A DNA stretch of 63,747 bases, counting the filler, from Candidatus Rokuibacteriota bacterium (GTDB taxonomy: Bacteria > JAUVQV01 > DATDCY01), in the NCBI GenBank assembly GCA_031406795.1. It is 5 parts of 5 records of this genome, joined end to end, with 100 filler letters (N's around TTAATTAATTAA, not from the genome) between each part and the next. Parts side by side here need not be neighbours in the genome. Positions count along the whole stretch, not along the records: positions 42,118 to 63,747 come from JANOHV010000261.1; 4 more parts are not named here. One strand, given 5' to 3'. A model generated the notes under the pieces. It was not told the origin of the DNA and did no database searches. It worked only from the letters and a program-made list of their open reading frames with translations. The position numbers and the translations under genes are program-made. Below are positions 28,641 through 63,747 of the stretch, piece by piece; positions within the stretch are counted from its first letter, which is position 1, and the number at the start of each line of letters is the position of its first letter.

Positions 28641-28656
28641 AAGGGTGTCGAAAGAT

Positions 28657-29835
28657 ATGATGGGCGTCAGCGTCGTCATTCCCTGTCTTGACGAGGAGGC
28701 CTCGATCGGGCAGGTGATCGACGCCGCCCGCGCCGGCATCGCCGCGGTCGTCGACGAGGGCGAAGTCATCGTCGTCGACAACGGGTCGACCGACCGTTCG
28801 GTCGAGATCGCGAAGAAGCACGGGGCCCGGGTGCTGAGCGAGACGCACCGGGGCTACGGCTCCGCGCTGCGCAAGGGATTCGACAACGCCCGGCACGAGA
28901 TCGTGGTCATGGGCGACGGCGACCTGACGTACGATTTCACCAAACTCGGCGATCTGGTGCGGCCGATCCTCGCCGGCGAGGCGCAGTTCGTCATCGGCAA
29001 CCGGATGGGCAACATCCTCCCTGGCGCCATGCCGCCGCTGCACCGCTACATCGGCAACCCGATCCTCTCCGGGCTGCTCAGGGTGATGTTCCGCGACCGG
29101 CGGGTGCGCGACGTGCACTGCGGCCTGCGGGCGATCAGCCGCGACGCCTACCGGGGGCTGCGCTGCGTCACGACGGGGATGGAATTCGCCAGCGAGATGG
29201 TGGTCAAGGCGATCAGCAACAAGCTGGTCATCGCCCAGCGGGACATCGTGTACCACCCGCGCATCGGCGACTCGAAGCTCCAGTCATTCCGCGACGGCTG
29301 GCGCCACCTGCGCTTTCTGGTGCTGCACAGCCCGACGATGCTGCTGCTGCTCCCGGGCGCCGTGTGCTGGGTGCTCGGGCTGCTGCTGGCCCTGCCGATG
29401 GCCTTCGGCCCCGTGGTCATCGGCGGCCGCAACATCGACATCCACTTCATGATCATGGCCGGCCTGCTGAACATCGTCGGCGTCCAGATCGTCACGGCGG
29501 GCCTGCTGGCGAAGTCCTACGGGCACCTCTCGGGTCTGCGGCACGACGAGTTCGTCGCGCGCCTCTACCGCTGGTTCACCTTCGAGAAGACCTTCCTCGG
29601 CTCGATGATCCTCGCCCTCCTCGGCTGCGGCATCGCCGGCGCGGTGGTCGTCGAGTGGGTGCTCTCGGACTTCGGGGACCTGAATCGCGCGCGGATGCTT
29701 TTCTTCGCGCTGCTCCTGCTCGTCGACGGCGTCCAGCTCGGGTTGTCCTCGTACCTCTTCTCGATCATGGCCCTCCCCCGGCACATCGATGTGCTCACGG
29801 GCGAAGACGAAAACACCGGCATCGTCGATCTCTGA
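28657..29835 (+). CDS. GT2 glycosyltransferase (polyprenol-phosphate sugar synthase-like) with C-terminal TMs
   Basis: SVVIPCLDEE, VVDNGSTDRS, GYGSAL, MGDGDLTY, SKLQSFRDGWRHL. Confidence 0.9.
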   Translation: MMGVSVVIPCLDEEASIGQVIDAARAGIAAVVDEGEVIVVDNGSTDRSVEIAKKHGARVLSETHRGYGSALRKGFDNARHEIVVMGDGDLTYDFTKLGDLVRPILAGEAQFVIGNRMGNILPGAMPPLHRYIGNPILSGLLRVMFRDRRVRDVHCGLRAISRDAYRGLRCVTTGMEFASEMVVKAISNKLVIAQRDIVYHPRIGDSKLQSFRDGWRHLRFLVLHSPTMLLLLPGAVCWVLGLLLALPMAFGPVVIGGRNIDIHFMIMAGLLNIVGVQIVTAGLLAKSYGHLSGLRHDEFVARLYRWFTFEKTFLGSMILALLGCGIAGAVVVEWVLSDFGDLNRARMLFFALLLLVDGVQLGLSSYLFSIMALPRHIDVLTGEDENTGIVDL

Positions 29836-29841
29836 TTCGGC

Positions 29842-31991
<2,150 letters not shown>

Positions 31992-31995
<4 letters not shown>

Positions 31996-41518: not shown

Positions 41519-41665
41519 ATCCCGCTCCTTTTCGGCGACGCATGGCGCAGTCGCCGGATCGAGATGTGCTTACGCTCGTCCGTACACACCCGACAGGAGG
41601 CCGCGTGTCGGCAAGCAGAGGAAGATGAGGCCGGGGCCGCACCGTGCGACCCCGGCCCGGTTCGG

Positions 41666-42017
41666 TCAGGGAATGCAGTTGCCCGCCAGGTCCACCGTGC
41701 CGACGCAGTACGGCCGCATCATCTCGTTGTCCTCATGCGAGAGGATGTGGCAGTGCCACAGATACAGGCCCGCGAGGTCGTACACCGCCTTGACCCTGGT
41801 CACCCCGCCGGGGTAGACGATGACCGTGTCCTTGAAGCCGGTCTCCCCGGGTTCTGGGGGAGTGACCGTGCCGGTCAGCATGTCCGTGCGGTCGATGACC
41901 TGGAACATCACGAGGTGGAGGTGGATCGGGTGGGCGTCGACCGTGAAGTTGTTGATCTCCCAGATCTCCGTGCTGCCGAAGGCCGGGGTTTCCGTGATCG
42001 GGTCCATGAAGTTCATC
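41666..42017 (-). CDS. Multicopper oxidase (CotA/bilirubin oxidase-like), C-terminal fragment, copy A
   Basis: HPIHLHLV, WHCHILSHEDNEMMRP; truncated by gap. Confidence 0.9.
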
Positions 42018-42117
42018 NNNNNNNNNNNNNNNNNNNNNNNNNNNNNNNNNNNNNNNNNNNNTTAATTAATTAANNNNNNNNNNNNNNNNNNNNNNNNNNN
42101 NNNNNNNNNNNNNNNNN
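42018..42117. other. Artificial contig linker
   Basis: N-run with TTAATTAATTAA. Confidence 0.99.
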
Positions 42118-44289: not shown

Positions 44290-45192
44290 TCATATCTCCG
44301 CCAGCCGGTTGACGATTTCCAGCGCCGCGACCGCCCCCTGACCGGCGCTGATCACCGCCTGGGAGTGCCCGTCGCACAGCGCGCCGACGACGAACAGGCC
44401 GCGAACGCTGGACTCCCCACTGGCATTGGCGCGGATCTGAAAACCCCTCGAGCCGCGTTTCAGGTCCAATCCGGCGAGATAGCCGTCGTTGAGCCTGAAC
44501 CCATGCCCGCCGAGAACCACCTCACAGGGGATGATCGTGCCATCCGCGAGACGGATCCCTTCGAGCCGCTCCTCGCCCAGCAGCTCCGCGGGCGTTCCCT
44601 GAAAGAGCGGTATGCCCTGCTCCTCGAGAAGAAAGCGATGGTCCTCGGGGAAGGCGAAACCTTCGGCGAGAAACGAGACATCCGGGGTAAAAAACCGCCG
44701 CGCCGCCAGCGCGAGGCGGACGCCGCTGAGGGCGGGTGAACTGACGAGCAGCTTCTTGCCGGTCGTGAGATAGCCGTCACAGATGATGCAGGTGAAGTAC
44801 GAGCGGCCGAAGTGCCGTCCGAGGTTCTTCAGGGACGGATAGCGCTCTCTCGCTCCGGAGGCGGCGATCACGTAGCGTGCGGCGTAGCGCGACCCGGCCG
44901 CGACGACCTCGAAGCGACCCTCCCCGCCGTCGACGCGCTCGACCGCGACCGGCGCCACGGTGACGCCGTGCGCCTGCGCCTGTTTCAATCCGACCGCGAT
45001 CAGATCGGTGCCGCTCACCGCGGGCAAACCGAGATAATTCTCGATCCGAACGGCGTGGCGCGTGCGGCCGATCGCGCCGTCGAAGAGCAGCACCCGAAGA
45101 TTGTAGCGGGCGAGATGGATCGCAGCCTGCAGGCCGCCCGGCCCGGCACCGACGATGATCGCATCGAAGGCCGTATCGGCTTCGCTCACCAT
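44290..45192 (-). CDS. Thioredoxin reductase-like FAD/NAD(P) oxidoreductase
   Basis: IVGAGPGG, ENYLG, CIICDGY, SAGQGAVAA. Confidence 0.88.
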   Translation of the reverse strand: MVSEADTAFDAIIVGAGPGGLQAAIHLARYNLRVLLFDGAIGRTRHAVRIENYLGLPAVSGTDLIAVGLKQAQAHGVTVAPVAVERVDGGEGRFEVVAAGSRYAARYVIAASGARERYPSLKNLGRHFGRSYFTCIICDGYLTTGKKLLVSSPALSGVRLALAARRFFTPDVSFLAEGFAFPEDHRFLLEEQGIPLFQGTPAELLGEERLEGIRLADGTIIPCEVVLGGHGFRLNDGYLAGLDLKRGSRGFQIRANASGESSVRGLFVVGALCDGHSQAVISAGQGAVAALEIVNRLAEI

Positions 45193-45263
45193 GACCCAGC
45201 CCCCCGGCATTCAGGACGCACCACGCGTCGCATTCTACCACCTCGCGCGTGCTGGTCGATCCG

Positions 45264-46943
45264 CTACCAGTCGCTGCCGCGCGCCCTCCCGCCCGGCTGC
45301 CCGCCGTCGATCGAAGCCAGGTAGTTCGCCGCGGCCAGACCCGCCTTGGCACCCGCCCCTTCCGCGACGACGATCTGCTTGTCCGGCTCGTCGGTCACGT
45401 CGCCGGCTGCGAAGAGGCCCGGGACCGAGGTCGACTGATCGCGGTTGACCAGGATCTCCCCCTGGGCGTTCAGCGGCACGAGCGCCGCAACCGGTCCGCT
45501 GTTGGGAATCAGCCCGATTTCCAGAAACGCGCCGTCCACGGACAACTGCTGTTGGGTTCCCCCATCCACCGACTCGAGGCGGACACCGGTCAGTTCCTGG
45601 ACCCCGATGAACTCCACGACCCTCGTCGCGGGGTGGAGCATGACCTTGGGGTGATCTGAGATTCCGGCCTGCAGAATGGCGTCGGCCTGCCAGTCGGGCA
45701 GCGGGTTGACCAGATGGATTTCCGCGGCGTAGCGCACCAGATCCCTGGCCGCCGTGAAGGCCGAATTCCCTCCCCCGATCACGGCGACCCGTTTTCCGGT
45801 GTAGAGCGGCGCGTCGCAGGTCGCGCAGAACGCTATGCCGCGCCCGAGGAGACCGGCCTCGCCCGGCACACCCAGGGTGCGATACTGTTTTCCCGCGCAA
45901 TAGATCAGGGTGCGGCCCCTGAAGTCGGTACCGTCCTCGACACGGGCGACGAACGCATCGCCCTGGCGTTCGATCGCCGAGACTCTGGTGTGAAGCGATT
46001 CGGCGATCTGGTAGTGCTCCATGTGGGCCCTGAACATCACGGCGAGATCGTGCCCGCCGATTCTCCTGACTCCCAGCCAGTTCTCGATCGCCGCGGTGTC
46101 GGAAATCTGTCCGCCCAGGCGGTCGCCGACGATCAGGACATCCAGCCCCTTGCGCACGGCGTAAATCGCTGCCGACATCGCGGCCGGCCCCGCCCCGACG
46201 ACGATCGCGTCGTATACGTGGCCGGGTACCGGGGCAAGCACCCGGCTTGCTCCCGAACGCGCGCGTGCTAACGCCTCCAATTCCTCGAAGACGTCGGGAG
46301 CGGCGATGCGGGTGATTTCGAGCACGGTCTCTTCAGGTGTGAGCAGCCCCTGGAAAGCCGGGCGTCCGTTGACGACGACCAGGGGAACCGCCCGGACGTC
46401 ATAGGCTCTGGCGCGGCCGGGGAACTCGTCCGACACCACGACGTCCGCCCGAACCTTGTCGTTGACCATGGCCATCTGGCAGGCCAGATGCGCCACACGC
46501 GGGCAGACCGGGCAGGTCAGGGTGACGAACACCTCGATGTGCGTCGGTGTGTCGATCCGCCTGACCCAGTCTTCAAGAGCCGGGGCGAGGCCCGAGCGGC
46601 CGTTGCCGACCATCAGCACCGCTTCGATCAACGTAGAGAACTCGTGGCCGGCCGCAACTCCATAGAAACGCAGCCCGAAATCCCGCTTGCCGAGGATGGC
46701 CGTGCAGGGTGCCTCATCGACTGCATACCGGCTGGCGATTTCCCGGTCTGATTCCACATCGTAGACTTCGAGCGAGATCCGGCTCGAGAGCTTCACGACA
46801 TCTTCGAGCAACCGCCGCTGGTCTTTCGAGCGGGAGGCCTGTTTGGACGTGAACAAGACGATCTTGACCGGCTCGGGAAGATACTTGTCCAACGAACCGG
46901 CGAGATCGACTGCCTTCTGTCCGGCGTCTTTGGCATCCGTCAT
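45264..46943 (-). CDS. AhpF-like fusion (protein-disulfide oxidoreductase + thioredoxin reductase)
   Basis: GHEFSTL, TLTCPVCP, VGAGPAA, CATCDAP, VIGGGNSA, FAAGDVT. Confidence 0.88.
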   Translation of the reverse strand: MTDAKDAGQKAVDLAGSLDKYLPEPVKIVLFTSKQASRSKDQRRLLEDVVKLSSRISLEVYDVESDREIASRYAVDEAPCTAILGKRDFGLRFYGVAAGHEFSTLIEAVLMVGNGRSGLAPALEDWVRRIDTPTHIEVFVTLTCPVCPRVAHLACQMAMVNDKVRADVVVSDEFPGRARAYDVRAVPLVVVNGRPAFQGLLTPEETVLEITRIAAPDVFEELEALARARSGASRVLAPVPGHVYDAIVVGAGPAAMSAAIYAVRKGLDVLIVGDRLGGQISDTAAIENWLGVRRIGGHDLAVMFRAHMEHYQIAESLHTRVSAIERQGDAFVARVEDGTDFRGRTLIYCAGKQYRTLGVPGEAGLLGRGIAFCATCDAPLYTGKRVAVIGGGNSAFTAARDLVRYAAEIHLVNPLPDWQADAILQAGISDHPKVMLHPATRVVEFIGVQELTGVRLESVDGGTQQQLSVDGAFLEIGLIPNSGPVAALVPLNAQGEILVNRDQSTSVPGLFAAGDVTDEPDKQIVVAEGAGAKAGLAAANYLASIDGGQPGGRARGSDW

Positions 46944-47021
46944 GGTCGCTCCGTCGCGCCGCAAGAAAACTGCGCCGTGCACCAATTTACTCAGGGCGCA
47001 GGCATTGCCCGCAGGCCCGGC

Positions 47022-47507
47022 TCAGTAATCTTCGAGGTGGTACCACTCCGCGTTCTCGAGCCACTGCTCGGGGCGCGAGACGAAGTCGATGATCCCCTCG
47101 ATGATCCGGTAATGCCGGCGCTCCTCGACGGCGATGCGCTCGAACGTCAGCTTCTCGGCGGGGGAGGCAGCGCGCTCGGCGGCGGAGCCGTAAAGCTCCC
47201 AGCTCTTGCGCTCCAGCTCCAGGGCCTTGCGGTAGAGTTCGACCTCGGAGGAGCGCGCACCCGCGGCCCCCTCTTTCTCCCGGATCTCGGCGAAGACGTT
47301 CTTCACCTGGTCGAGCAGCGCGGAGTCCGTGAGCGTGGCGTCCTCATGCGCCTTCATCCGGCGGAACAGATCGTAGTGAATCGTCTCCGCGTCGGCGAGC
47401 ATCAGCAGTATCCTGCTTAAGCCCGCACTGGCGGTCTTCGCCGCGCACTCCCGGTAATAGGCCTCGCCGTCCTTCTCCATCTGCATCGCAAAGCCGTACA
47501 CGTCCAT
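47022..47507 (-). CDS. Rubrerythrin-like ferritin-family protein
   Basis: AMQMEKDGEAYY, LADAETIH, ALELERKS..Y, EERRH. Confidence 0.85.
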   Translation of the reverse strand: MDVYGFAMQMEKDGEAYYRECAAKTASAGLSRILLMLADAETIHYDLFRRMKAHEDATLTDSALLDQVKNVFAEIREKEGAAGARSSEVELYRKALELERKSWELYGSAAERAASPAEKLTFERIAVEERRHYRIIEGIIDFVSRPEQWLENAEWYHLEDY

Positions 47508-47634
47508 CCGTAGCCTCCTCTTCTGGTGATCCGCCAGCAGTATGCCCTCGTTGCCGCGTTCTGGCGAGTCCCCGACACGGCAGGTCCCCGGCGCGCGGCC
47601 TTGCTCTCTCGGGAAGAAGCTCTATCATTCTCCC

Positions 47635-48540
47635 ATGGGGGATGCTCAGGTCACCGCCGCGGCAGGACGGGCGCGTTCCGACGGCGGGACCTCCGCCGTG
47701 CTGGAAGTCGCCGGCCTCTCCAAGTCCTTCGGGAGCGTCCGGGCCGTGGACGCACTGACGTTCGCGCTCGCGGCCGGCGAATTCGTCGGGCTGCTCGGTC
47801 CCAACGGCGCCGGCAAGACCACCACCATCAAGATGCTCACCGGCCTGATGCGGCCCGGCGCCGGCACGATCCGGTACTACGGCCGCGACTTCCTGCGCTT
47901 CCCCCGCGAGGCCAAGCGGGAGATCGGCGTCGTGCAGCAGATCAGCAACCTCGACCGCGATCTGACGGCTCGCGAGAACCTGACCCTCCACGCCATCCTG
48001 CACGGCCTCGGCGGCGCCGGGCGCCGCGATCGGATCGAGGAGGCCCTGCGTTTCGCGGGCCTCGAAGCGGCGGGGGACCGGCCGGTCAGGACCTTCTCCG
48101 GCGGCATGGGCCGGCGCCTCGTCATCGTGCGGGCGCTGCTGCACGAACCGAAGATCCTCTTCCTCGACGAGCCGACGGTCGGCCTCGACCCGCAGATCCG
48201 CCGCGACCTGTGGGACCTGATCATCCGGATCAATCAGTCCCGCAAGACCGCCATCCTGCTGACGACGCATTACATCGAGGAGGCGGAGCGCCTCTGCAGC
48301 CGGGTCCTGATCCTCAACGACGGCCGGCTGGCGGCCGAAGGCTCCCCGGCCGGGCTCAAGCGGGGGCTCGGGAGATTCGTGCTGGAGATCCTGCGCGAGG
48401 AGGGTCTGGAAGAGGTTTTTTTCGAGACCCGCGAGGAGGCGGTCGCCCGGCTGGGCGTCTGCACCACCTCCTGCAAAGTGCGGGAGTCGACCCTGGAGGA
48501 CGTCTTCCTGAAGCTGACCGGCCGGCGGATGGAGCGGTAG
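47635..48540 (+). CDS. ABC transporter ATP-binding protein (NodI/DrrA-like)
   Basis: GPNGAGKTT, FSGGMGRR, FLDEPTVGLDP. Confidence 0.92.
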   Translation: MGDAQVTAAAGRARSDGGTSAVLEVAGLSKSFGSVRAVDALTFALAAGEFVGLLGPNGAGKTTTIKMLTGLMRPGAGTIRYYGRDFLRFPREAKREIGVVQQISNLDRDLTARENLTLHAILHGLGGAGRRDRIEEALRFAGLEAAGDRPVRTFSGGMGRRLVIVRALLHEPKILFLDEPTVGLDPQIRRDLWDLIIRINQSRKTAILLTTHYIEEAERLCSRVLILNDGRLAAEGSPAGLKRGLGRFVLEILREEGLEEVFFETREEAVARLGVCTTSCKVRESTLEDVFLKLTGRRMER

Positions 48541-48550
48541 GGGCGCGACG

Positions 48551-49288
48551 ATGTGGAACGGGGTGCGCGGCGTGCTCTACCGGGAACTGAAGGTCTACTC
48601 CAAACGCGCCGGCAAGCAGCTCCTGGCTTCCTCCATCTCCCCGCTGCTCTTCCTCGTCGCCTTCGGCTGGGGTTTCGGACGGGGAGTGACCATGGAGGGG
48701 GTACCGTACCTGACGTTTCTGATCCCCGGACTCATCGCGATGAGCAGCCTCAACCAGAGCTACGGCATCGCCCAGGAGCTGAACATCTCGCGCTTCTACT
48801 TCCATGTCTTCGACGAGTTCCTGATCGCCCCGGTCACCCCGCTCGGGATCGTGCTCGGGGAGACGCTTTACGGCATGTTCCGGGGACTGTTGAGCGCAGT
48901 GCTCATCCTGCTGATCGCCCTGCCCTTCGGGGTCCCGTTCGCTCCGACGCCGGTGTTTTTCGCGGCGCTGGCTCTGCACACCTTCATCTTCGCCTCGCTC
49001 GGCGTCGCGCTCGCGATGCTTGTGCAGGACCACGCCGGGCAGGCCGCCATCACCAACTTCGTGATCACCCCGATGATCTTCCTCGGCGGCACATTCTTCT
49101 CCCTGGAGCGGCTGCCCTCGCCGCTCCAGCTGGCGGTCTCGCTGCTGCCGCTCTCGCATTCGGTACGGGTCCTCCGCGACGCCTTCCTCGGCAGGGCCAC
49201 CGATCCCGTCCACCTGCCGGTGCTGCTCCTCTTTGCCGGCGGCTGCTTCGCCCTGGCCCTGCTCGCGGTGAAGCGGGTCGAAGCCTGA
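48551..49288 (+). CDS. ABC-2 permease
   Basis: Six-TM pattern, YLTFLIPGL, PMIFLGGTFF. Confidence 0.9.
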   Translation: MWNGVRGVLYRELKVYSKRAGKQLLASSISPLLFLVAFGWGFGRGVTMEGVPYLTFLIPGLIAMSSLNQSYGIAQELNISRFYFHVFDEFLIAPVTPLGIVLGETLYGMFRGLLSAVLILLIALPFGVPFAPTPVFFAALALHTFIFASLGVALAMLVQDHAGQAAITNFVITPMIFLGGTFFSLERLPSPLQLAVSLLPLSHSVRVLRDAFLGRATDPVHLPVLLLFAGGCFALALLAVKRVEA

Positions 49289-49304
49289 GCGGGGCCCGCC
49301 GCCG

Positions 49305-49829
49305 TTATTTGATCACGCCGCACGCCAGACGGGCGCCGCCGCCGCCGAGAGGCGCGGGCGCGTCGGAGTAAGTGTCGCCGCCCGCGTGGATCATCAGGGA
49401 ACGCCCCGCCAGGTCCGCGAGCTTCAGCCGCGGCGCGCCAACCGGCTGCGTGGCCTTCCCGTCTGCGCCCACGGTAAGCGCCGGCAAATCGCCGAGGTGG
49501 CCGACGCCGGAGGGGCCTTCGTGCTTCGCGGTCGCAGCCGGGTCGTAATGCCCGCCCGCCGCCAGGCCGGGAACTCTCTTTCCGTCCTTTTCTCCCGCCG
49601 CGCAGTCCGCGTTCTGGTGGACGTGGAACCCATGCACCCCAGGCGGCAGGTCCGTGAGCTCCGGCGTGAGCACCAGCCCGTTCGGCCCCTCGGTGATCGA
49701 CACCGAGCCGATTGCCTTGCCGACCCCCTGCTCATCGACCAGGTTCATCTGCACGACGGTGCCTTCTGCGAACGCCCTGCCCGTGAAGACCAGCGCCGCG
49801 ACAGCCACAACTGCCAGTGCCTTTCTCAT
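49305..49829 (-). CDS. sodC: Cu/Zn superoxide dismutase
   Basis: Signal peptide; [40 protein letters not shown]. Confidence 0.95.
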
Positions 49830-50024
49830 GCCAGACCCTCCCCCGTTGGTTGCCTTTGAATATAAACCTTTGAAAAGCCTTTGGCACCTCCTGACCGCCG
49901 ACCCTGAGCGCGATCGCCGGGTGACGCCGCGGGGAAAAAGATTTATGGTATGGTCAGCACTCTCACACGGAGCCGGGGCCTGAGGCCAGTGCCCCGGCGA
50001 AATTCCACGGCCGGAGGAGGACTC

Positions 50025-50708
50025 ATGAGCACGATTCGTGTCCTGTCCCGAAGCGACGCCCCGTTCCGCGACCGGCGTGAGGCCGGAATTCTGCTCGCCC
50101 GCGAGCTGGAGGCCTATCGCGCCCGGCGGCCCGTCGTTCTCGGCATCCCCCGCGGAGGCGTCGTCGTCGCGGAGCAGATCGCCGTCGGCCTCGACGCCGA
50201 ACTCGACATCGTGCTCGCGCGAAAGATCGGCGCCCCGGGCAATCCCGAGCTCGCGATCGGGGCCGTCGCCGAGGACGGGCATCTGATCCTCGACGAGCGC
50301 ATCCGGATGCGGCTCGGGGTGTCGCAGCAGTTCGTCGCCCAGCAGCAGGCCCGCCAGGTCGAAGAGATCGCACGGCGCGTCGCCCTCTTCCGCGCCGTGC
50401 GTCCCAAGATCCCGCTCCAGGGCCGGGTGGTGATCGTCGCCGACGACGGGCTGGCGACCGGGGCCACGATGGAGGCGGCGCTGTGGGCCGTTCACCGCGA
50501 GCGACCGGGACACCTCGTCATCGCGGTGCCGGTGGGCGCGGCCGATACCATCGAGCGGCTGGCCGGACAAGCCGACGAGTTGCTCTGCCTTCAGGCGCCG
50601 GAGGACTTCGGCGCCGTCGGGAGGTTCTTCGTCCGGTTCGACCAGACTACCGACGAAGAGGTCGTCGAGATTCTCCGGAGCCGGCGCGGCACGGGGAAGG
50701 AGACCTGA
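50025..50708 (+). CDS. Phosphoribosyltransferase family protein
   Basis: [38 protein letters not shown]. Confidence 0.9.
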
Positions 50709-52022: not shown

Positions 52023-52259
52023 GGCGCGGGGCGATCAGGATTACCGGAACGGTGGCGGCGCCCGCAGCAACGTCCACTTCTTCAACGGGATGACCCGGAA
52101 GCCTGCCTGCTGCGCTGTGTGATATCCATCACACCGGACGCCCGAAGTTCCAGTATATTGGCGGGTGCAGGAGTCTACCGAAAGACCGCCAGGCTCGGCG
52201 TGCATGCGCATTGGCCGGGACGGCGGATACGATGCGGACCATTCACGGAGGGCATTGCG

Positions 52260-53255
52260 ATGAAGACGCGAATGATTGGTGCGGCGGCCTTGCTGGCGTT
52301 GAGCGCGCTCGCCGGCTGCGCCGGAAAGACGCAGCAGCTTCAGCTGCGCGACGGCACGGGCGACGCGAAGGAGACGGTCTTCCCGAAAGGGCGCTTGTTC
52401 GGCGGCGTGAGCCAGCAACAGGTCGGGACGCTCGCCCAGATGGTCGCTGCTACCAACAACACCACATCGGAGCGGCTCGACGCGGTGGATCGAACCACCG
52501 GCAAGACCGCCGACGCCGCGGCGCGGATCGAGACGAAGGCCCTGCAGATTGAGGCGAAGACCCAGCAGATCGAAACCGCTACCCGGGACATCCAGGCCTC
52601 GGAAAAGCGGATCGAGTCGGGCACGACCCAGATCGCGGAGGACACCCGACGGATCGAGGGCGAGACGCTGAAGATCGCCGAGGCCACCCGGCGAATCGAC
52701 GGCGCGACCCAGTCCATCTCGGAAACGACGGCGAAGGTGGCGGACACGACCCGGCGGATCGACGAGACGGGCACGAAGACCTACGACACCACGAGAATGA
52801 TCCTCGACGCCTTCGAGAAAGTTTCGAAGAAACAGGGCACCGGCGAGATTACCGTCTTCTTCCCGGTCGCCTCCAGCCGGATCGAGCCCGGTTCGCTGCA
52901 ATACCAGCGCGTCGTCACCTTCGTCGATTTTCTCGCGCGGGAGAGCCGCGGCCGCAAGCTGATGCTTGTCTCCGTCGGCAGCGCATCGGCTTTCGGCCCG
53001 AAGGAGATCAACGAGCGCCTGGCGAAGGAGCGCTCGGAGGCGCCGCTGGAGATCGTCGACCAGTACCTCGTGAACTTGCCGCATGAGTACGTGCGGATCT
53101 ACGGCACCGGCGACGCCTACAGCCCGCGCGACGTCTCGTTGAAAGAGCACCAGCGCTATCAGGCCGCGCGGCTGATCGCCTTCTACGAAATGGGTCAGCA
53201 GCCGCAGCTCCCGGACGCGCCTGAACCCGGCCCCGGCGCCGTGTCGCAGCGCTGA
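52260..53255 (+). CDS. Lipoprotein with heptad-repeat coiled coil and OmpA-like C-terminal domain
   Basis: LAGC lipobox; 7-aa repeats; VFFPVASSRI..VGSASAFG..NERLAKERS. Confidence 0.75.
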   Translation: MKTRMIGAAALLALSALAGCAGKTQQLQLRDGTGDAKETVFPKGRLFGGVSQQQVGTLAQMVAATNNTTSERLDAVDRTTGKTADAAARIETKALQIEAKTQQIETATRDIQASEKRIESGTTQIAEDTRRIEGETLKIAEATRRIDGATQSISETTAKVADTTRRIDETGTKTYDTTRMILDAFEKVSKKQGTGEITVFFPVASSRIEPGSLQYQRVVTFVDFLARESRGRKLMLVSVGSASAFGPKEINERLAKERSEAPLEIVDQYLVNLPHEYVRIYGTGDAYSPRDVSLKEHQRYQAARLIAFYEMGQQPQLPDAPEPGPGAVSQR

Positions 53256-54373: not shown

Positions 54374-55414
54374 TCACAGAAAGCACTGCGGATCGTCCGC
54401 GCAGAGGTCCTCCTCGCCGCGCGCCGCCGACGACGCCCACGCGATCGCGCGGCAGCCGCGACAGGCGGCCCAGCGGGGACACGTCCCGCACCGCCCGCGA
54501 TATTCCTCGCGGCTGCGCAGTCGCGCCAGCACCGGGGACGTCGCCCAGAGCTCGCGGATCGAGTCGCGGCGGACGTTCCCGATCGCCACGGGGAGGCGGC
54601 GACAGGGCAGGATCGTCCCGTCCTCCAGCACCGTAATCCCGGCGAGGCCGGCGGCGCAACCGCCCGCGGGGATCGAGAGCCCGGGGTCGATCGCGGGCGG
54701 CCAGAGCACGCAGGAGGCCAGCGGGTCGCCGGTCACGAACTCCAGCCCCGGCACCGCGGCGGCGGCGATCTCCCGGTAGACCCGCCCGGTTTCCTCCGCG
54801 CTGAGCGCCGCCTCCCGCAATTCGCAACCCCGGCCGGCGGGGACGATGCGCGCGAAGCCGAGGCGCTGCACACCGCGCGCCGCCACCAGCTGCGCGAGGG
54901 GCAGGACCTCCGCAGCGTTCAGGCGCGACAGGGTCATGTTTGCCGTGACGGTCAGACCCGCGGCGATGAGGTGGTCGACACCGCGCAGCGCCGCGTGAAA
55001 GGACCCCGGGCCGCGGATGTCGTCGTGAACCGGTTCGCGCCCCTCGAGGCTCACCTGAACGGCGCGCACCCCGAGGTCGGCAAGCCGCCGCGCCGCAGCC
55101 TCCCCGACGAGCGTGCCGTTGCTCAGAACCGCGACCGCGAAACCCGCCTCGTGGAAATCGCGAACGATCTCGAACAGATCGCGGCGGAGGAAGGGCTCCC
55201 CCCCGGTCAGGCTCACGGCGGGGGCGAAAGCGAGCCCGTAGGTCTCCTGCCAGGCCTGGATCGTGTCGCGGACTTCGGCGATGAGATCGCGGACCTCGGC
55301 GGTGGTCAGTTCCTCACCCGCCGCTTCCGTCTGGTAGCAGTGGCGGCAGCGCAGATTGCAGCGTGCGGTGAGGTGCAGCTGCACGAAGAAGCTCAACGGA
55401 TCGGTGAGCGCCAT
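54374..55414 (-). CDS. Radical SAM/SPASM domain enzyme, probable peptide maturase
   Basis: CNLRCRHC, TGGEP; SPASM Cys: GCAAG..PCRRL..CGTC..CRGCR..PQC. Confidence 0.93.
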   Translation of the reverse strand: MALTDPLSFFVQLHLTARCNLRCRHCYQTEAAGEELTTAEVRDLIAEVRDTIQAWQETYGLAFAPAVSLTGGEPFLRRDLFEIVRDFHEAGFAVAVLSNGTLVGEAAARRLADLGVRAVQVSLEGREPVHDDIRGPGSFHAALRGVDHLIAAGLTVTANMTLSRLNAAEVLPLAQLVAARGVQRLGFARIVPAGRGCELREAALSAEETGRVYREIAAAAVPGLEFVTGDPLASCVLWPPAIDPGLSIPAGGCAAGLAGITVLEDGTILPCRRLPVAIGNVRRDSIRELWATSPVLARLRSREEYRGRCGTCPRWAACRGCRAIAWASSAARGEEDLCADDPQCFL

Positions 55415-55450
55415 GGGGCGATGATAACACTACGGCGGGACGGGGGATGG

Positions 55451-55497
55451 CGGGTGCGGCGGCGTCCTCACTCGGCGGAAATCCGCCGCCGCACCCG
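55451..55497 (-). promoter_or_regulatory. 14-bp perfect-stem hairpin between peptide gene and radical SAM gene
   Basis: CGGGTGCGGCGGCG ... CGCCGCCGCACCCG. Confidence 0.7.
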
Positions 55498-55505
55498 GAA
55501 CTCTG

Positions 55506-55523
55506 CATCGCCGACCGGCGACG
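55506..55523 (-). promoter_or_regulatory. Candidate SECIS hairpin
   Basis: Minus strand CGTCGCC-GGTC-GGCGATG; apical GCC-GGUC-GGC parallels the E. coli fdhF GCA-GGUC-UGC; loop starts after 25 and 16 nt from the first two UGAs. Confidence 0.75.
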
Positions 55524-55646
55524 TCACGATTTTCAGGAGTTTCACTTGCGGCAGACCTTGACCGACTGCTCACTCAGAGCCTTCTTCAGCGCCGTCCAGT
55601 GCGCCGCTTCCTGCTCCCGCGCCTGCTTGCTGATTGCCTTCTTCAT
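55524..55646 (-). CDS. Putative selenocysteine-containing RiPP precursor peptide (40 aa, CxxUxxU core)
   Basis: SD AGGAGGTGAT; MKKAISKQAREQEAAHWTALKKALSEQSVKVCRK-U-NS-U-KS-stop; in-frame TGA at 55544, 55535, 55526. Confidence 0.8.
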
Positions 55647-55881
55647 CCGTATCACCTCCTCTCTTCCTGCAGTTGAGCGCAGCGCCTCTGCCTCCGCGCC
55701 GATCCATAGGCGGTATCACTAACAGAGATACACCCTGTCCGCCGCGGACGCAAGACCAGCGACCCGGCCAGACAATTGCACTGTGGCCCGCGGAGCCGGG
55801 GGGGCGGAGTGGCAGCTCAGGCCTTGGCGCCGACGCGGCGCCTCATTCTCATCCGCACCGAAGGGTGGTATACCTCACTGC

Positions 55882-57981
55882 ATGCGGACTGTCGCGTTCC
55901 GGATCGCCTCGCTTTATGCTCTCTTCGGTGTCGTCTGGATCGCCGTCTCGGACCGGGTCCTGGAGGCCCTGATCGCCGACACGCACACGATCACCGTCGT
56001 CCAGTCGTACAAGGGCTGGGCTTTCGTGGTCCTCTCCTCGCTGCTGATCTACGCCGTGGTCGGGCGTGAACTCGCCGCGCGCGAGCGCGCCGAGGTCGAG
56101 CTCTCGGCCTCCGAGGAGCGCTACCGTACATTCATCGAGCTGGCCAACGACGCCATCATCGTGTACGACGCCGCGACCGGCCGGATCATCGACGCCAACC
56201 ACAAGGCCGGGGAGCTGCTCGGCCTGCCGCCGGAGAAGCTGCTCGGGCTGCACCATCTGGACCTGCACCCCGCAGCGGAGCGCGAACGGTACCGAGTCCT
56301 CTTCGCCGATGCGGTCCGCACGGGGAGCGTGCCCGCGGCCTCGGTCAGTTTTCCCCGCAGCGACGGCCGAACAATCCCGACCGAAGTCAGCCTGAGCGTG
56401 ATCGAGGTCGGCGGCCGCAAGGTCATGATGAGCATCGTCCGCGACGTCTCGGAGCGCCGGGAAGCCGAACTGCACCTGCAACAGGAGAAGGAGCGCGCCC
56501 AGCTCTACCTCGACGTCGCCGGGGTGATGCTCGTGGTCATCGACACCGAGCGACGGGTGCGCCTGATCAACCGCAAAGGCGCCCGGATGCTCGGCTACAC
56601 CGAGGAGGAAATTGTCGGAAAACCCTGGTTCGAGACGTTCGTTCCGGAGCGGGTGCGCACGGCGGCGGCCGCGACCTACACCCGGCTCATGGCGGGCGAG
56701 GAGCCCCCGATGGAATACCACGAGGACCCGGTGCTGACCCGCGACGGCGCCGAGGTGCTGGTCGGCTGGCACGACGCGCTGATCCGGGACGAGGCGGGCC
56801 GGGTCGTCGGGACAATCAGCTCGGGGGAGGACATCACCGAGCGCGCACGGGCGCAAACCGAAGCACGCACCCGGCTCGAGCGCCTCGCCACGCTGCACGA
56901 GATCGACCTGGTGATCAGCTCCAGCCTCGATCTGCGCGTGACCCTCACCCAGCTGCTCGAGCGGGTGATGGAGCAGTTCGGCCTCGACGCCGCGGACGTA
57001 CTGCTGCTGCAGCCGCACTCCCAGGCGCTCGAATACGCGGCCGGGCGCGGCTTCCGCACCGGCGGCATCAAGCGCACCCGGCTGAAGATCGGCGAGGGCA
57101 TCGCCGGGCTCGCGGCGCTCGAGCGGCGCAGCATCCGCATCCCGGACCTCCGGGATCCCGCGAGCGGCTTCGCGCGGGAGGAGCTCATCGAGGGGGAGGG
57201 CTTCATCGCCTACTACGCCGTGCCGCTCACCGCCAAAGGCCGGGTCCAGGGCGTCCTGGAGGCGCTCAGCCGCAAGCCGCTCCTGCTCGACGAGGAGCAG
57301 CAGGCCTTTCTGGAGTCGCTCGCTTCCCAGGCCGCCATCGCCATCGACAACGCCGCGCTCTTCGAGGAGCTGCAGCGCTCGCACAGCGCCCTGACGCTGG
57401 CCTACGACGCCACCCTCGAGGGCTGGGCGCACGCACTCGATCTGCGGGACCAGGCGACCGAGCGGCACACCGAGCGGGTGAGCGAGATGACCGTGCGCCT
57501 CGCCCGGGCGATGGGGATGAACGAGGAGGAGCTCTCCCATGTGCGCCGCGGGGCGCTGCTGCACGACATCGGCAAGATCGGCATCCCCGACACCATCCTG
57601 CGCAAGTCCGGGCCGCTGACCCCGGACGAGTGGGCGATCATGCGCCGGCACCCCCAGCTGGCCTTCGAGATGCTCCAGCCGATCGCCTATCTGCGCCCGG
57701 CGCTCGACATCCCCTACTGCCATCACGAGCACTGGGACGGGACCGGCTATCCGCGTGGGCTCAAGGGCGACCAGATCCCGCTGGCGGCGCGAATCTTCAC
57801 GCTGACCGACATCTGGGACGCGCTCCACGCGACCGACCGGCCGTATCGCACCTCGCTTTCGCGGGAAGAAACCTGCAAGGAGATCCGCGCGCTCGCGGGC
57901 ACCCATCTCGACCCCGCGGTCGTGGAGGCTTTTCTCCGCCTCGACGACGAGTCCTGTCACGCGCCGCAGCCGCACCCGTAG
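55882..57981 (+). CDS. Membrane-anchored PAS-PAS-GAF HD-GYP phosphodiesterase
   Basis: Two TMs, two PAS, GAF, LLHDIGK, HHEHWDGTGYP. Confidence 0.93.
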   Translation: MRTVAFRIASLYALFGVVWIAVSDRVLEALIADTHTITVVQSYKGWAFVVLSSLLIYAVVGRELAARERAEVELSASEERYRTFIELANDAIIVYDAATGRIIDANHKAGELLGLPPEKLLGLHHLDLHPAAERERYRVLFADAVRTGSVPAASVSFPRSDGRTIPTEVSLSVIEVGGRKVMMSIVRDVSERREAELHLQQEKERAQLYLDVAGVMLVVIDTERRVRLINRKGARMLGYTEEEIVGKPWFETFVPERVRTAAAATYTRLMAGEEPPMEYHEDPVLTRDGAEVLVGWHDALIRDEAGRVVGTISSGEDITERARAQTEARTRLERLATLHEIDLVISSSLDLRVTLTQLLERVMEQFGLDAADVLLLQPHSQALEYAAGRGFRTGGIKRTRLKIGEGIAGLAALERRSIRIPDLRDPASGFAREELIEGEGFIAYYAVPLTAKGRVQGVLEALSRKPLLLDEEQQAFLESLASQAAIAIDNAALFEELQRSHSALTLAYDATLEGWAHALDLRDQATERHTERVSEMTVRLARAMGMNEEELSHVRRGALLHDIGKIGIPDTILRKSGPLTPDEWAIMRRHPQLAFEMLQPIAYLRPALDIPYCHHEHWDGTGYPRGLKGDQIPLAARIFTLTDIWDALHATDRPYRTSLSREETCKEIRALAGTHLDPAVVEAFLRLDDESCHAPQPHP

Positions 57982-63395: not shown

Positions 63396-63747
63396 TCAGG
63401 GAATGCAGTTGCCGAACTGGTCCAACGAGCCGACGCAATATGGCCGCATCATCTCGTTGTCCTCGTGCGACAGGATGTGGCAGTGCCACAGGTACAGGCC
63501 CGCGAGGTCGTACATCGCCTTGACCCTGGTCACCCCGCCGGGGTAAACAATGACCGTGTCCTTGAAGCCACTCTCCCAGGGTTCAGCCGGCGTAACCGCG
63601 CCGGTGAGCATGTCCGTGCGGTCGATGACCTGGAACATCACGAGGTGGAGGTGGATCGGGTGGGCGTCGACCGTGAAGTTGTTGATCTCCCAGATCTCCG
63701 TGCTGCCGAAGGCCGGGGTTTCCGTGATCGGGTCCATGAAGTTCATC
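63396..63747 (-). CDS. Multicopper oxidase C-terminal fragment, copy B
   Basis: Same motifs as 41666-42017; truncated by window end. Confidence 0.9.
   Translation of the reverse strand, partial: MNFMDPITETPAFGSTEIWEINNFTVDAHPIHLHLVMFQVIDRTDMLTGAVTPAEPWESGFKDTVIVYPGGVTRVKAMYDLAGLYLWHCHILSHEDNEMMRPYCVGSLDQFGNCIP

Follow-up and report, generated by a model that had tools for sequence, protein, structure and literature searches.

In the parts of the literature that we consulted, SbtA/SbtM is the sole natural pairing of a selenocysteine (Sec)-encoding peptide with a radical SAM enzyme. The system comprises the "selenobacteriocin" TIGR04081 and the thio(seleno)oxazole radical SAM maturase TIGR04082 and is found in Geobacter and Desulfobacteria, according to the sections consulted (PMC9204691; PMC13188914). 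In the same sections, SbtA is described as probably also containing two Sec, with Sec following a small residue in the context SGUG or GGUG (PMC9204691; PMC13188914). In vitro, the maturases PapB and Tte1186 tolerate Sec at the position of Cys and generate Se-C links, and the Se contacts an Fe of an auxiliary cluster, as reported in the part of the study consulted (PMC10177961). For the recoding of UGA in bacteria, the model given in the consulted part of a recent inventory specifies a SECIS element with a loop of 3 to 9 nt, a stem of 4 to 16 bp and a G in the first two loop positions, located 16 to 37 nt from the UGA and with an MFE of ≤ −7.5 kcal/mol (PMC13188914). In the same part, a Sec located three residues before the stop is said to imply that the SECIS has to be situated at the stop codon or past it (PMC13188914).

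Here, we analyzed a 63,747-nt stretch of joined records (referred to as the window) from a Candidatus Rokuibacteriota bacterium (GCA_031406795.1), in which a candidate two-Sec peptide gene lies next to a gene for a radical SAM/SPASM enzyme. SbtA/SbtM is the closest known system, and the peptide-enzyme pair is not a member of it. As in SbtA/SbtM, a small precursor with in-frame UGAs and a SECIS-like element is encoded beside a radical SAM/SPASM enzyme in anaerobic deltaproteobacterial-type hosts, and the second putative Sec is preceded by G or S. However, TIGR04081 had no match at E ≤ 1 to the window peptide or to any of 38 family members. The enzyme scored 139.8 bits against a cutoff of 350 for TIGR04082 and aligned only to profile positions 199 to 503 of 516; it therefore lacks the N-terminal ~200 residues of SbtM. 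Moreover, the core of the peptide reads C-x-K-U-x-x-U-K-S at the extreme C-terminus rather than G-U-G, and the present cassette, unlike SbtA/SbtM, also occurs in Nitrospirota.

Results

A candidate two-Sec precursor peptide is encoded upstream of the enzyme gene

The initial annotation of this locus described a strong Shine-Dalgarno site, an ORF with a charged leader and a C-R-K-UGA-N-S-UGA-K-S-UGA core, a hairpin whose loop lies 25, 16 and 7 nt past UGA1, UGA2 and UGA3, a stem of 14 bp and a co-oriented 346-aa radical SAM/SPASM gene. We found each of these elements again, to the base, on the minus strand of the window, to which all coordinates below refer. The Shine-Dalgarno site AGGAGGTGAT (55651..55660) lies 4 nt before the ATG start codon (55644-55646), and the start codons of homologous peptides are preceded by a AAGGAGGTGA-like site. 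The precursor peptide gene (55524..55646) has 40 sense codons, two of which are UGA codons putatively read as Sec, plus a UGA stop codon; its conceptual translation with UGA1 and UGA2 as Sec predicts the product MKKAISKQAREQEAAHWTALKKALSEQSVKVCRKUNSUKS. The leader MKKAISKQAREQEAAHWTALKKALSEQSVKV (residues 1 to 31; 55554..55646) is predicted to form a helix and to dock on the enzyme, and its residues E13 and W17 are invariant in the family based on peptide alignments. The core C32-R-K-U35-N-S-U38-K-S40 (55527..55553) and the stop codon are encoded by TGC CGC AAG TGA AAC TCC TGA AAA TCG TGA, in which UGA1 (55542..55544) would encode Sec35, UGA2 (55533..55535) would encode Sec38 and UGA3 (55524..55526) would be the stop.

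The C-x-K-TGA-x-x-TGA motif was present directly upstream of the enzyme gene in 67 of 80 homologous loci in addition to the window. In three further loci, a contig end cuts off the upstream region; among the 77 whose upstream sequence is long enough, 10 have no adjacent peptide. The same gene arrangement is present in three close metagenome relatives of the window. Given its recurrence in 67 of 80 independent loci, the arrangement in the window is not a product of chance.

We used the 68 motif-bearing sequences for codon counts. Rather than ending with TAA or TAG at the first UGA position, all 68 have TGA at both positions, while the codon at the position of the third UGA varies among relatives (TGA in 25, TAA in 18 and TAG in 6; in the others, 1 to 3 extra residues precede the stop), such that an in-frame stop of varying identity invariably follows 1 to 4 codons on. 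This difference supports the proposal that the first two UGAs encode Sec and the third is the stop. Matches to a regex-free HMM in 31 genomes likewise had exactly two in-frame TGAs in each.

The region past the UGAs has the signature of a coding sequence. Ser40 is encoded by AGC (40 sequences), AGT (10), TCC (3), TCT (3), TCA (2) or TCG (2) among the 68, and Ser is retained even though AGY and TCN codons differ by two or three bases. The Lys codons in the core differ only at position 3, and the mean entropy at codon positions 1, 2 and 3 is 0.51, 0.38 and 1.03 in the four codons past the UGAs compared to 0.96, 0.80 and 1.43 in the leader. There were no indels between Cys32 and UGA2 in the 68 sequences, of which that of L047 appears degenerate. 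The family consensus of the core is C-[HRQL]-K-U-[KNS]-[GSAE]-U-K-[STAG], with C32, K34, U35, U38 and K39 lacking any variation; thus, Lys precedes U35 and follows U38, and the residue before U38 is Gly (38 sequences), Ser (25), Ala (2) or Glu (3).

The exchange of Cys and UGA at the core positions, which had been suggested as a further line of support, was not seen in the 80 loci, the genome searches or 25 database sequences. When the 13 motif-less loci were searched with a relaxed motif, no Cys-variant peptide emerged either; the lone match, in L080, was in a spurious frame and was rejected. An alignment of Sec with Cys is a usual criterion in the discovery of selenoproteins and is no requirement for function. 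This classic criterion is unavailable here, as both Sec positions lack Cys in every homologue. We infer Sec insertion from conservation, the coding signature, covariation in the hairpin described below and the joint occurrence of the peptide with both the enzyme and Sec use, and judging from these sequence features, the 40-residue peptide very probably carries two Sec residues.

A SECIS-like hairpin follows the stop codon

The hairpin cgucgcc-GGUC-ggcgaug (55506..55523) lies in the 3' UTR immediately past the stop codon and has 7 bp, including one G-U, and an energy of −10.2 kcal/mol. Its GGUC loop, 7-bp stem, energy and spacing of 25 and 16 nt to UGA1 and UGA2, respectively, fit the SECIS consensus model, with UGA2 at the lower edge of the spacing range, while UGA3, at 7 nt, is too near. 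It is unusual for one SECIS to serve two UGAs separated by 9 nt. A near-identical form is seen in a Geobacter relative, whose fdhA SECIS reads GUCGCC-GGUCU-GGCGGC and lies 18 nt past the UGA.

Using strict rules, we detected the hairpin in 61 of the 68 sequences, with a GGUC(N) loop in 53. The spacing from UGA2 to the loop was 16 to 18 nt in 54 of the 61 hairpins, and the pair closing the loop, as tabulated by script, was C-G in 30, U-A in 28 and A-U in 2. In RNAalifold on 41 sequences, compensatory changes were found at three of five pairs; only five pairs were recovered from the MAFFT alignment because the 3' arm is displaced by a fifth loop base that varies. The stem by itself reaches the model threshold in 37 of the 61 hairpins and is weaker than −7.5 kcal/mol in 24, and the 3' arm is absent in 2 of the 68 sequences (L044 and L056). 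The hairpin is, therefore, conserved with compensatory changes, as the initial reading of the locus would predict. The folding z-score of the entire 146-nt intergenic stretch is an unremarkable −0.75, and for this reason, the case for the hairpin rests on conservation and not on energy. Rfam gave no match at gathering thresholds in the window and only chance-level matches around the peptide (window and L062); because no Rfam model matches, Rfam gives no test of the SECIS.

The second stem-loop (55451..55497) is formed by the G+C-rich arms cgggugcggcggcg and cgccgccgcacccg with 14 bp and has no U-tract in the window. In L095 to L097, its arms are retained and its loop is variable. Among 60 loci surveyed, relatives have a strong hairpin at this site, often followed by a T-run, resembling a terminator or attenuator. 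A scan of positions 55300-55950 for promoter and terminator consensus sequences gave no match.

The peptide co-occurs with Sec use and spans several lineages

We identified selB above the cutoff in five of five genomes holding loci, and the same genomes have TGA-containing selD and fdhA. We also used a sample of 352 genomes from two phyla (151 from Nitrospirota and 201 from a second phylum). Within Nitrospirota, selB was found in 17 of 19 peptide carriers and 44 of 132 non-carriers, a difference for which Fisher tests overstate the significance because they ignore relatedness. The remaining two carriers have TGA-containing selD and fdhA. Sec use is, thus, evident in all 19 Nitrospirota carriers, and the peptide is confined to Sec-using genomes in that sample. 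selA and selB were not found in two peptide-bearing metagenome-assembled genomes. In the window itself, none of selA, selB, selC and selD was seen, with protein-family scans covering ORFs beyond 37 kb, and ARAGORN detected no tRNA or tRNA-Sec gene. Four other TGA-interrupted candidates in the window were rejected as selenoproteins; the only long TGA-interrupted candidate (29833) seemingly represents a pair of adjacent genes, and an ATG lies two codons past the stop.

The cassette spans Nitrospirota, Desulfobacterota-type lineages, Geobacter and Syntrophorhabdus, including the cultivable Syntrophorhabdus aromaticivorans UI (locus L079), and a search with the peptide gave 358 database clusters at E ≤ 0.001. 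Among 25 database sequences examined from these 358, 24 stop at C-[HR]-K, i.e., at the first UGA, and the truncated peptide is labeled "hypothetical protein." Annotation overlooks the family because gene-calling programs end the ORF at the first UGA. A full-text literature search gave no description of a two-UGA peptide of this kind or of its partner enzyme family. The consulted part of an inventory from 2026, which covers 119 families of prokaryotic selenoproteins, has no entry for the peptide; the supplements of BSepDB and of the review could contain one.

The partner enzyme is predicted to bind the leader of the peptide

The gene for the 346-aa radical SAM/SPASM enzyme (54374..55414) is co-oriented with the peptide gene. 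The protein scores above the cutoffs of Pfam Radical_SAM and SPASM. The CxxxCxxC motif for the SAM cluster (C19/C23/C26) and seven Cys in the SPASM region (C253, C271, C309, C312, C318, C321 and C344) are invariant in 30 aligned sequences. The radical SAM core begins at residue ~15, and the enzyme has no N-terminal RRE (PqqD-like) domain; moreover, there is no conserved PqqD-like gene in the neighborhoods of the homologous loci. An RRE is not present in all radical SAM/SPASM maturases. Neither the peptide nor the enzyme reaches any curated NCBIfam family: the best profile scores of the enzyme were those of AhbD (174.1 bits), NirJ2 (154.5 bits) and a third heme-type family (145.3 bits), for which the cutoffs are 500, 500 and 515, respectively, while the score for MftC (123.8 bits) was also below the family cutoff. 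The nearest solved folds are the peptide-modifying SPASM/twitch enzymes SkfB, SuiB, PqqE, ChlB, anSME and CteB, with PqqE as the top neighbor in both sequence and fold among solved structures. Two sets of metatranscriptome contigs each contain a single short piece of the enzyme gene, spanning 55206-55417 (X5) and 54591-54829 (X9), and no RNA contig overlaps the peptide gene; such contigs cannot indicate transcription or its absence.

In the sample of 352 genomes, 28 carry the peptide, each with exactly two in-frame TGAs, and all 28 have the enzyme. These comprise 19 of the 151 Nitrospirota genomes, with an enzyme ortholog in 19 of 19, and 9 of the 201 genomes of the second phylum, the same 9 having the ortholog just downstream on the same contig. 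Two genomes (G029 and G136) have an enzyme ortholog, and no peptide was detected in them. The distance between the two genes is 19 kb in G004 and 1.4 kb in G151, and in G143, they are on separate contigs. We had considered that the 10 peptide-less loci represent a separate paralogue and dropped this idea, as the enzyme tree scatters them (not one clade, seven changes).

For the enzyme together with the 34-aa peptide obtained with genetic code 11, a complex was predicted with a score of 0.84 (0.84, 0.85 and 0.83 in individual runs) compared to 0.02 for the best control. Of the solved complexes, 58 of 80 reached this mark, as did 2 of 110 mismatched pairs; these counts apply only roughly here because we supplied our own alignments. 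The runs share at least 59% of contacts, and the pLDDT of the partner is at least 73. The predicted contacts span peptide residues 3 to 29, and the enzyme residues contacted include W55, R287, E288, W290 and R300, none of which varies among the 30 aligned sequences. Solved leader-enzyme complexes with similar folds may have contributed to the complex score. In the model, the conserved leader helix docks onto family-specific enzyme residues, which supports binding. Altogether, the enzyme has the SAM motif, the seven-Cys SPASM region and the pairing with a precursor that characterize a peptide maturase, along with predicted binding, and we infer that it acts on the peptide.

Discussion

We consider it likely that the locus is a two-gene cassette for a 40-residue precursor with two Sec and a radical SAM/SPASM enzyme that binds and modifies it. 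In the proposed mechanism, ribosomes would start at the ATG behind the strong Shine-Dalgarno site, and a single SelB-binding hairpin (SECIS, GGUC loop) just past the stop would recode UGA1 and UGA2 as Sec, while UGA3, 7 nt from the loop, would end translation, giving a product that ends with C-x-K-U-x-x-U-K-S. The conserved amphipathic leader (KEAAxW...) would then dock on a family-specific surface to which helix 55-61 and residues 285-300 of the SPASM region of the enzyme contribute, and docking would feed the C-terminal core to the SAM cluster and the auxiliary Fe-S clusters. As to the chemistry, we can only guess: intramolecular cross-links of the seleno/thioether type, in which Sec also serves as a ligand of an auxiliary cluster, have a reasonable chance of being correct, some other reaction is a more doubtful option, and SbtM-like oxidation of the β-carbon, giving a seleno-oxazole at the [G/S]-U step, is slightly more doubtful still. 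The peptide gene is single-copy, its core hardly changes from phylum to phylum, and the homologous loci have no conserved gene for a protease, transporter or immunity protein nearby. For these reasons, we think that the product is a housekeeping selenopeptide or a cofactor-like molecule rather than a bacteriocin. A more specific version of this idea, which is tentative and rather unlikely to hold in full, is that the peptide is the precursor of a Se-containing peptide-derived redox cofactor or catalytic mini-protein common to anaerobic Nitrospirota, Desulfobacterota-type lineages, Geobacter and Syntrophorhabdus, i.e., a Se counterpart of PQQ/mycofactocin. In this scenario, an RRE-less SPASM enzyme would read the leader directly, a single 3' UTR hairpin would recode two UGAs nine bases apart, and a third UGA nine bases on would terminate, such that distance to the hairpin alone decides how the codon is read.

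The same observations could be explained without modification of the peptide by the enzyme. If the peptide is a real two-Sec mini-selenoprotein, e.g., with a metal-, selenium- or redox-active CxxUxxU tail, the two proteins might share only a pathway, and the enzyme might have another substrate, e.g., a tetrapyrrole. Consistent with this possibility, AhbD and NirJ2 are the top profiles of the enzyme, which lacks an RRE domain; the loci have no conserved protease or transporter gene nearby; the genes are separated in G004 (19 kb), G151 (1.4 kb) and G143 (separate contigs); and a terminator-like hairpin often lies between them. However, the heme-family scores are far below the cutoff (174 versus 500 bits), peptide maturases are the closest solved folds, and the enzyme is present in 28 of 28 peptide-bearing genomes. 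The predicted leader-enzyme complex (0.84 versus 0.02 for the best control), with the caveats mentioned above, and a predicted interface built of family-invariant enzyme residues also argue against an unmodified mini-selenoprotein, which we regard as improbable.

It would be still less probable, and in our opinion very unlikely, that the gene stops at the first UGA to give a 34-residue single-Cys peptide, with the conserved remainder functioning as an RNA-level attenuator or protein-binding hairpin that controls the enzyme gene. While the database entries examined treat the gene in this manner (24 of 25 end at C-[HR]-K), nucleotide conservation past UGA1 is high and no Cys variants were found, a regulatory RNA would not account for the retention of Ser40 through AGY and TCN codons, the concentration of variation at third codon positions, the lack of indels from Cys32 to UGA2 in 68 sequences or the varying in-frame stop that is always within 1 to 4 codons. 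The SECIS form and spacing of the hairpin and the restriction of the peptide to Sec-using genomes in the Nitrospirota sample also speak against it. Taken in isolation, the window shows a short pattern and an ordinary folding z-score, as would be the case for three UGAs spaced by chance behind a spurious small ORF with no function; the conservation over Nitrospirota, Desulfobacterota-type lineages, Geobacter and Syntrophorhabdus makes this explanation barely conceivable.

If the cassette functions as a precursor and its modifying enzyme, it would be a second natural family, unrelated to SbtA/SbtM and apparently far more widespread (358 clusters; 28 of 352 genomes). Selenoproteome surveys based on Cys/Sec alignment miss peptides without a Cys form. 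Three identical UGAs at 25, 16 and 7 nt from one SECIS would provide a natural test of how distance sets codon meaning. The predicted recognition of a leader without an RRE domain would be a tractable enzyme problem, and a natural substrate would put Se where spectroscopists have hitherto introduced it synthetically.

Beyond SbtA/SbtM, the locus shares features with four groups of known systems. The enzyme resembles AhbD/NirJ in size and domain order and has its highest profile scores with them; however, these scores are far below the cutoffs, and the partner gene encodes a peptide and is not a heme-pathway gene. The peptide resembles UxxU and C-terminal-Sec families (UXX-star, KCU-star, Prx-like UxxU, NF041115 and FmdB-family UxxU), which, as described in the sources consulted, feature either a pair of Sec spaced by three residues or a single Sec located three residues ahead of the stop. 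The peptide has no NCBIfam match to these families, none of them is listed with a radical SAM partner in the portions consulted, and the comparison is otherwise by description only.

Similarly to PqqA/PqqE and MftA/MftC, the locus combines a short single-copy precursor and a near-invariant C-terminal core with a SPASM radical SAM partner. Those systems, in contrast, need a separate PqqD/MftB chaperone and peptidases, neither of which is conserved at the present loci, and are without selenium, and the enzyme scores below the cutoffs of those families. With the sactipeptide/ranthipeptide thioether maturases CteB, PapB and Tte1186, of which CteB is a structural neighbor of the enzyme, the locus shares the seven-Cys SPASM region and a Cys-rich core behind a leader. 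Thioether-forming SPASM maturases carry an N-terminal RRE domain. The natural substrates of CteB, PapB and Tte1186 use Cys, whereas the present peptide would carry genetically encoded Sec, which may become cross-linked.

A conserved peptide gene with in-frame UGA codons lies upstream of a radical SAM/SPASM gene

Re-reading the minus strand of the window, we found the peptide gene as the initial annotation had described it. A Shine-Dalgarno site, AGGAGGTGAT (55660-55651), lies upstream of an ATG at 55646 that opens the frame MKKAISKQAREQEAAHWTALKKALSEQSVKV-C-R-K-UGA-N-S-UGA-K-S-UGA, with UGA1 at 55544-55542, UGA2 at 55535-55533, and UGA3 at 55526-55524. A 7-bp hairpin, cgucgcc-GGUC-ggcgaug (55523-55506; −10.2 kcal/mol), begins at the base next to UGA3, and its loop starts 25, 16, and 7 nt past UGA1, UGA2, and UGA3, respectively, as had been claimed. 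The 14-bp G+C-rich stem (55497-55451) and the co-oriented open reading frame (ORF) for a 346-aa radical SAM/SPASM protein (55414-54374; hereafter, the enzyme) likewise follow on the minus strand in the order proposed.

Scanning a genome collection, we identified 183 stretches that encode relatives of the enzyme and analyzed the best 80 loci of these 183. Upstream translation of these homologues had been suggested as a check, and 67 of the 80 loci, as well as the window, contain the motif C-[HRQL]-K-TGA-x-x-TGA immediately upstream of the enzyme gene and in the same orientation. The peptide consensus is MKKxLSKKALxKEAAFWxxxKKAxKENPGKVCHK-U-K-G/S-U-K-S (U, selenocysteine [Sec]), and a AAGGAGGTGA-type ribosome-binding site lies ahead of the homologous peptide start codons listed. 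Among the 13 loci without the motif, three (L018, L066, and L078) have <140 nt of upstream sequence, that of L018 starting within the conserved hairpin; in the ten with at least 694 nt upstream, an adjacent peptide gene is truly absent. Three metagenome contigs encode relatives of the window enzyme with 88-91% identity, preceded by the peptide tail CRK-U-NG-U-KS-U; both hairpins are kept in all three, and in one, the basal pair of the first hairpin is A-U instead of G-U. We note that three loci look like degenerate copies: L047 (~2857) has a disrupted leader and seems to be missing one 9-nt unit, which puts its second UGA 7 nt from the loop, and in L044 (~2577) and L056 (~2866), the 3' arm of the hairpin is lost.

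Coding constraint and a SECIS-like hairpin support Sec at UGA1 and UGA2

We tabulated the codons around the UGAs in 68 peptide sequences. The codon after UGA1 is AAG in 57, AAA in 6, AAC in 3, and AGC in 2 sequences, and the second codon specifies Gly, Ser, Ala, or Glu. After UGA2, the first codon is AAG (53), AAA (14), or TAT (1), and the second encodes Ser in 60 of 68 sequences, using AGC (40), AGT (10), TCC (3), TCT (3), TCA (2), and TCG (2). Because a switch between the two Ser codon families takes two or three base changes, keeping Ser through both is expected only if the amino acid itself is selected for. Mean entropies for the first, second, and third positions of the four post-UGA codons are 0.51, 0.38, and 1.03 bits, compared with 0.96, 0.80, and 1.43 in the leader, i.e., the third-position excess is the same. 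No indels were found between Cys32 and UGA2 among the 68 sequences. At the position of UGA3, we observed TGA in 25, TAA in 18, and TAG in 6 sequences, while the remaining sequences have one to three extra residues (E, D, S, T, KP, or GS) followed by a stop. The codon variation and the varying stop thus argue that translation runs through UGA1 and UGA2 and that UGA3 is the true terminator in the window.

Using strict rules (a loop of 4-6 nt beginning with G and a stem of at least 5 bp), we detected the hairpin in 61 of the 68 sequences. The loops are GGUC (25), GGUCA (18), GGUCC (9), GGUUC (4), and others (5), and the pair closing the loop is C-G (30), U-A (28), A-U (2), or U-G (1). By eye, the seven sequences outside these rules comprise four with GUUGCU-UGGAU-AGCAAC, one with GUUGCCA-GGC-UGGCAAC, and two (L044 and L056) without the 3' arm. 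Across 41 sequences, RNAalifold revealed compensatory changes at three of five pairs, in agreement with the conservation anticipated for this element. In 54 of the 61 hairpins, the loop lies 16-18 nt past UGA2, and this spacing is kept where the peptide is one residue longer, since the stop codon and the stem overlap in that case. In a 2026 review, a bacterial SECIS is modeled with a loop of 3-9 nt, a stem of 4-16 bp, G as the first or second loop base, a UGA-loop gap of 16-37 nt, and an MFE of −7.5 kcal/mol or lower (PMC13188914). By that description, UGA1 (25 nt) and UGA2 (16 nt) are within the permitted spacing and UGA3 (7 nt) is outside it; the stem alone reaches −7.5 kcal/mol or lower in 37 of the 61 hairpins. 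Accepted selenoprotein genes of the same genomes bear similar elements, and in fdhA of a Geobacter relative, GUCGCC-GGUCU-GGCGGC, located 18 nt past the UGA, is almost identical to the window hairpin. Rfam contains no matching model. Based on these features, the hairpin appears to behave like a SECIS. The assignment of UGA1 and UGA2 as Sec and of UGA3 as the stop is therefore supported by the coding constraint, the variable terminal stop, and the hairpin spacing together.

The enzyme is predicted to recognize the leader directly

The enzyme has Radical_SAM and SPASM domains above the Pfam cut-offs and reaches no curated NCBIfam cut-off; its best score is to AhbD (174 bits; cut-off, 500), followed by NirJ2 (154; 500), SbtM (140; 350), GeoRSP (134; 400), and MftC (124; 265). 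In an alignment of 30 family members, the C19/C23/C26 SAM cluster motif and all seven SPASM-region Cys residues (253, 271, 309, 312, 318, 321, and 344) are invariant. Judged from the known SPASM pattern, these seven would suffice to bind two auxiliary clusters and leave a single iron site open. An N-terminal recognition (RRE) domain is absent. The solved folds closest to the AlphaFold model (mean pLDDT, 88.5; pTM, 0.88) are those of the peptide-modifying enzymes SkfB, SuiB, PqqE, ChlB, anSME, and CteB (query-normalized TM-scores, 0.63-0.75); by sequence, PqqE and SkfB are the closest solved structures.

For the complex prediction, we paired the enzyme alignment with the peptide as translated by table 11 (34 residues, the leader followed by C-R-K). 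This pair scored 0.84 (0.84, 0.85, and 0.83 in the individual runs) vs. 0.02 for the best control, with contact agreement between runs of at least 59% and partner pLDDT of at least 73. Of 80 solved complexes, 58 attained the 0.84 mark, as did 2 of 110 mismatched pairs; these counts apply only approximately, as we supplied our own alignments for the prediction. The score may in part reflect existing solved structures of leader-enzyme complexes with a similar fold. Peptide residues 3-29, including the invariant E13 and W17, are predicted to contact enzyme residues 55, 58-61, 241-250, 285-292, 297, 300, and 316, of which W55, R287, E288, W290, and R300 are family-invariant. The prediction supports, without proving, direct, RRE-independent recognition of the leader.

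The peptide co-occurs with the enzyme and with Sec use

In all five genomes behind selected loci, we identified selB above the cut-off, selD and fdhA each with one in-frame TGA, and a single peptide match, which carries two TGAs. In a sample of 151 Nitrospirota genomes, 19 encode the full-length peptide with two TGAs. Enzyme orthologs (>500 bits) are present in 21 genomes, including all 19 peptide carriers, and selB in 61, including 17 of the 19. In the assemblies of the two remaining carriers, selA and selB were not found, and TGA-containing selD and fdhA are present; the peptide is thus restricted to Sec-using genomes in this sample. Fisher tests gave 3e-22 for peptide vs. enzyme and 4e-6 for peptide vs. 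selB, values that are overstated as kinship is ignored. In a second phylum sample of 201 genomes, the peptide with two TGAs occurs in 9, and exactly those 9 encode an ortholog (at least 439 bits), on the same contig just downstream of the peptide. The peptide accordingly co-occurs near-perfectly with one radical SAM clade.

Among the sampled genomes, G029 has the enzyme and G136 an N-terminally truncated copy, with no peptide detected in either. In G004, one of the five genomes above, the enzyme has no adjoining peptide; the peptide is encoded on the same contig at a distance of 19 kb. Peptide-less loci are dispersed on the enzyme tree (seven changes). A peptide match in G033 is probably spurious (weak, 23.8 bits, one TGA). 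G004 also has two full-length selB matches above the family cut-off, and G152 has one full-length and one partial match (profile positions 1-347). A sister group of the enzyme (G091, G111, G139, and G158; ~280-293 bits against the family profile), from genomes without the peptide, may be a paralogue that acts on another substrate.

Gene surroundings

At many loci, a strong hairpin, GGCAGAUAUGGC...GCCAUAUCUGCC (also GGCAGATATGGC...GCCATATCTGCC), often with a T-run after it, lies between the SECIS-like hairpin and the enzyme gene (L007, L008, L016, L032, L033, L039, L042, L050, L051, and others). The G+C-rich second stem of the window is in the same place and has no T-run, and a consensus scan of this region found no terminator. 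In the relatives, the hairpin resembles an intrinsic terminator or attenuator and could set the peptide:enzyme transcript ratio.

No conserved protease, transporter, immunity, or PqqD-like gene was found nearby. At ~14 loci, the gene that immediately follows the enzyme gene, in the same orientation, encodes a ~190-aa PEMT/ICMT-family membrane methyltransferase (L006, L007, L009, L012, L020, L025, L041, L042, L045, L057, L061, and L064; ~4030-4630 in most), and at ~15 others, a YceI-like protein takes its place (L017, L021, L023, L035, L037-L039, L050, L052, L063, L072, L074, and L077; ~4030-4750 in most). Both families are linked to isoprenoid-bearing substrates, and on this basis may be accessory genes; neither is present in the window.

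Neighbors in the window include a SnoaL-like protein, a CDGSH iron-sulfur protein, a cytochrome c protein, and a PAS-GAF-HD sensor. An oxidative-stress-type cluster (44293-50570) comprises a thioredoxin-reductase-like protein (44293-45210), an AhpF-like thioredoxin-domain flavoprotein (45267-47021), rubrerythrin (47025-47621), an ABC-2 transporter pair (47530-49285), and an ORF (49305-50570) with a C-terminal part resembling Cu/Zn superoxide dismutase. This setting is redox-stress flavored and is not conserved among the relatives. Elsewhere in the window are three multicopper-oxidase ORFs (39986-41569, 41669-42061, and 63399-63746), two with the C-terminal cupredoxin domain only, and a plus-strand, 410-codon stop-to-stop frame (52023-53252; 378 aa from GTG) with degenerate T..RI(E/D)..T..I.E.T repeats and no Pfam match. 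One plus-strand frame split by a TGA at 29833 (28441-29835 and 29836-31995), with an ATG two codons on, most likely represents two adjacent genes and not a selenoprotein.

Proposed function and relation to known systems

The finding is real, and the interpretation first proposed is supported by the sequence comparisons: the ORF is conserved, its coding constraint extends across two UGAs, and the SECIS-type hairpin covaries and keeps a constant distance. In the mechanism that we propose, SelB on the single hairpin would deliver Sec-tRNA at UGA1 and then at UGA2; at UGA3, the hairpin would be too near the ribosome to act, and the release factor would win. The leader helix would dock on the enzyme, with the C-x-K-U-x-x-U-K-S tail at the C-terminus entering the active site.

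For the chemistry, we favor seleno/thioether cross-links because thioether-forming SPASM enzymes take Sec and bind it via an auxiliary cluster (PMC10177961); this is a guess to which we assign slightly less than even chances. SbtM-like oxidation at the [G/S]-U38 step, our second choice and equally a guess, seems considerably less probable. In its near-invariant core, single copy, and lack of nearby export genes, the peptide is closer to the precursors of PQQ and mycofactocin than to bacteriocins.

The peptide matches no NCBIfam or Pfam family. In a large protein collection, its profile matched 358 clusters (E ≤ 0.001), and 24 of 25 sequences examined from these stop at C-[HR]-K, i.e., at UGA1; matching entries, where named by their source, are "hypothetical protein." The remaining one, the public database entry P0127, has Trp at the TGAs (…CHKWKSWKSWSCRSATRH) with all three read through, evidently because the gene caller applied a code with TGA as Trp. 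In the articles covered by a full-text literature search, no description of the peptide/enzyme family was found. In Table 1 of the 2026 review, which tabulates 119 prokaryotic selenoprotein families, a C-x-x-U-x-x-U peptide is absent, and the only radical-SAM-linked peptide is Selenobacteriocin TIGR04081, with the motif SGUG (PMC13188914). The closest known system is SbtA/SbtM, in which the Gly-Sec/Cys unit of a Sec-containing precursor is oxidized to a thio(seleno)oxazole (PMC9204691). By family profile, the present pair falls outside that system: the peptide has no match to TIGR04081 at E ≤ 1, and the enzyme scores 140 bits against the SbtM cut-off of 350. Given this and the lack of a described family, we rate the pair as a putative second, unrelated, and wider family, after SbtA/SbtM, in which a radical SAM enzyme is paired with a peptide carrying genetically encoded selenocysteine.
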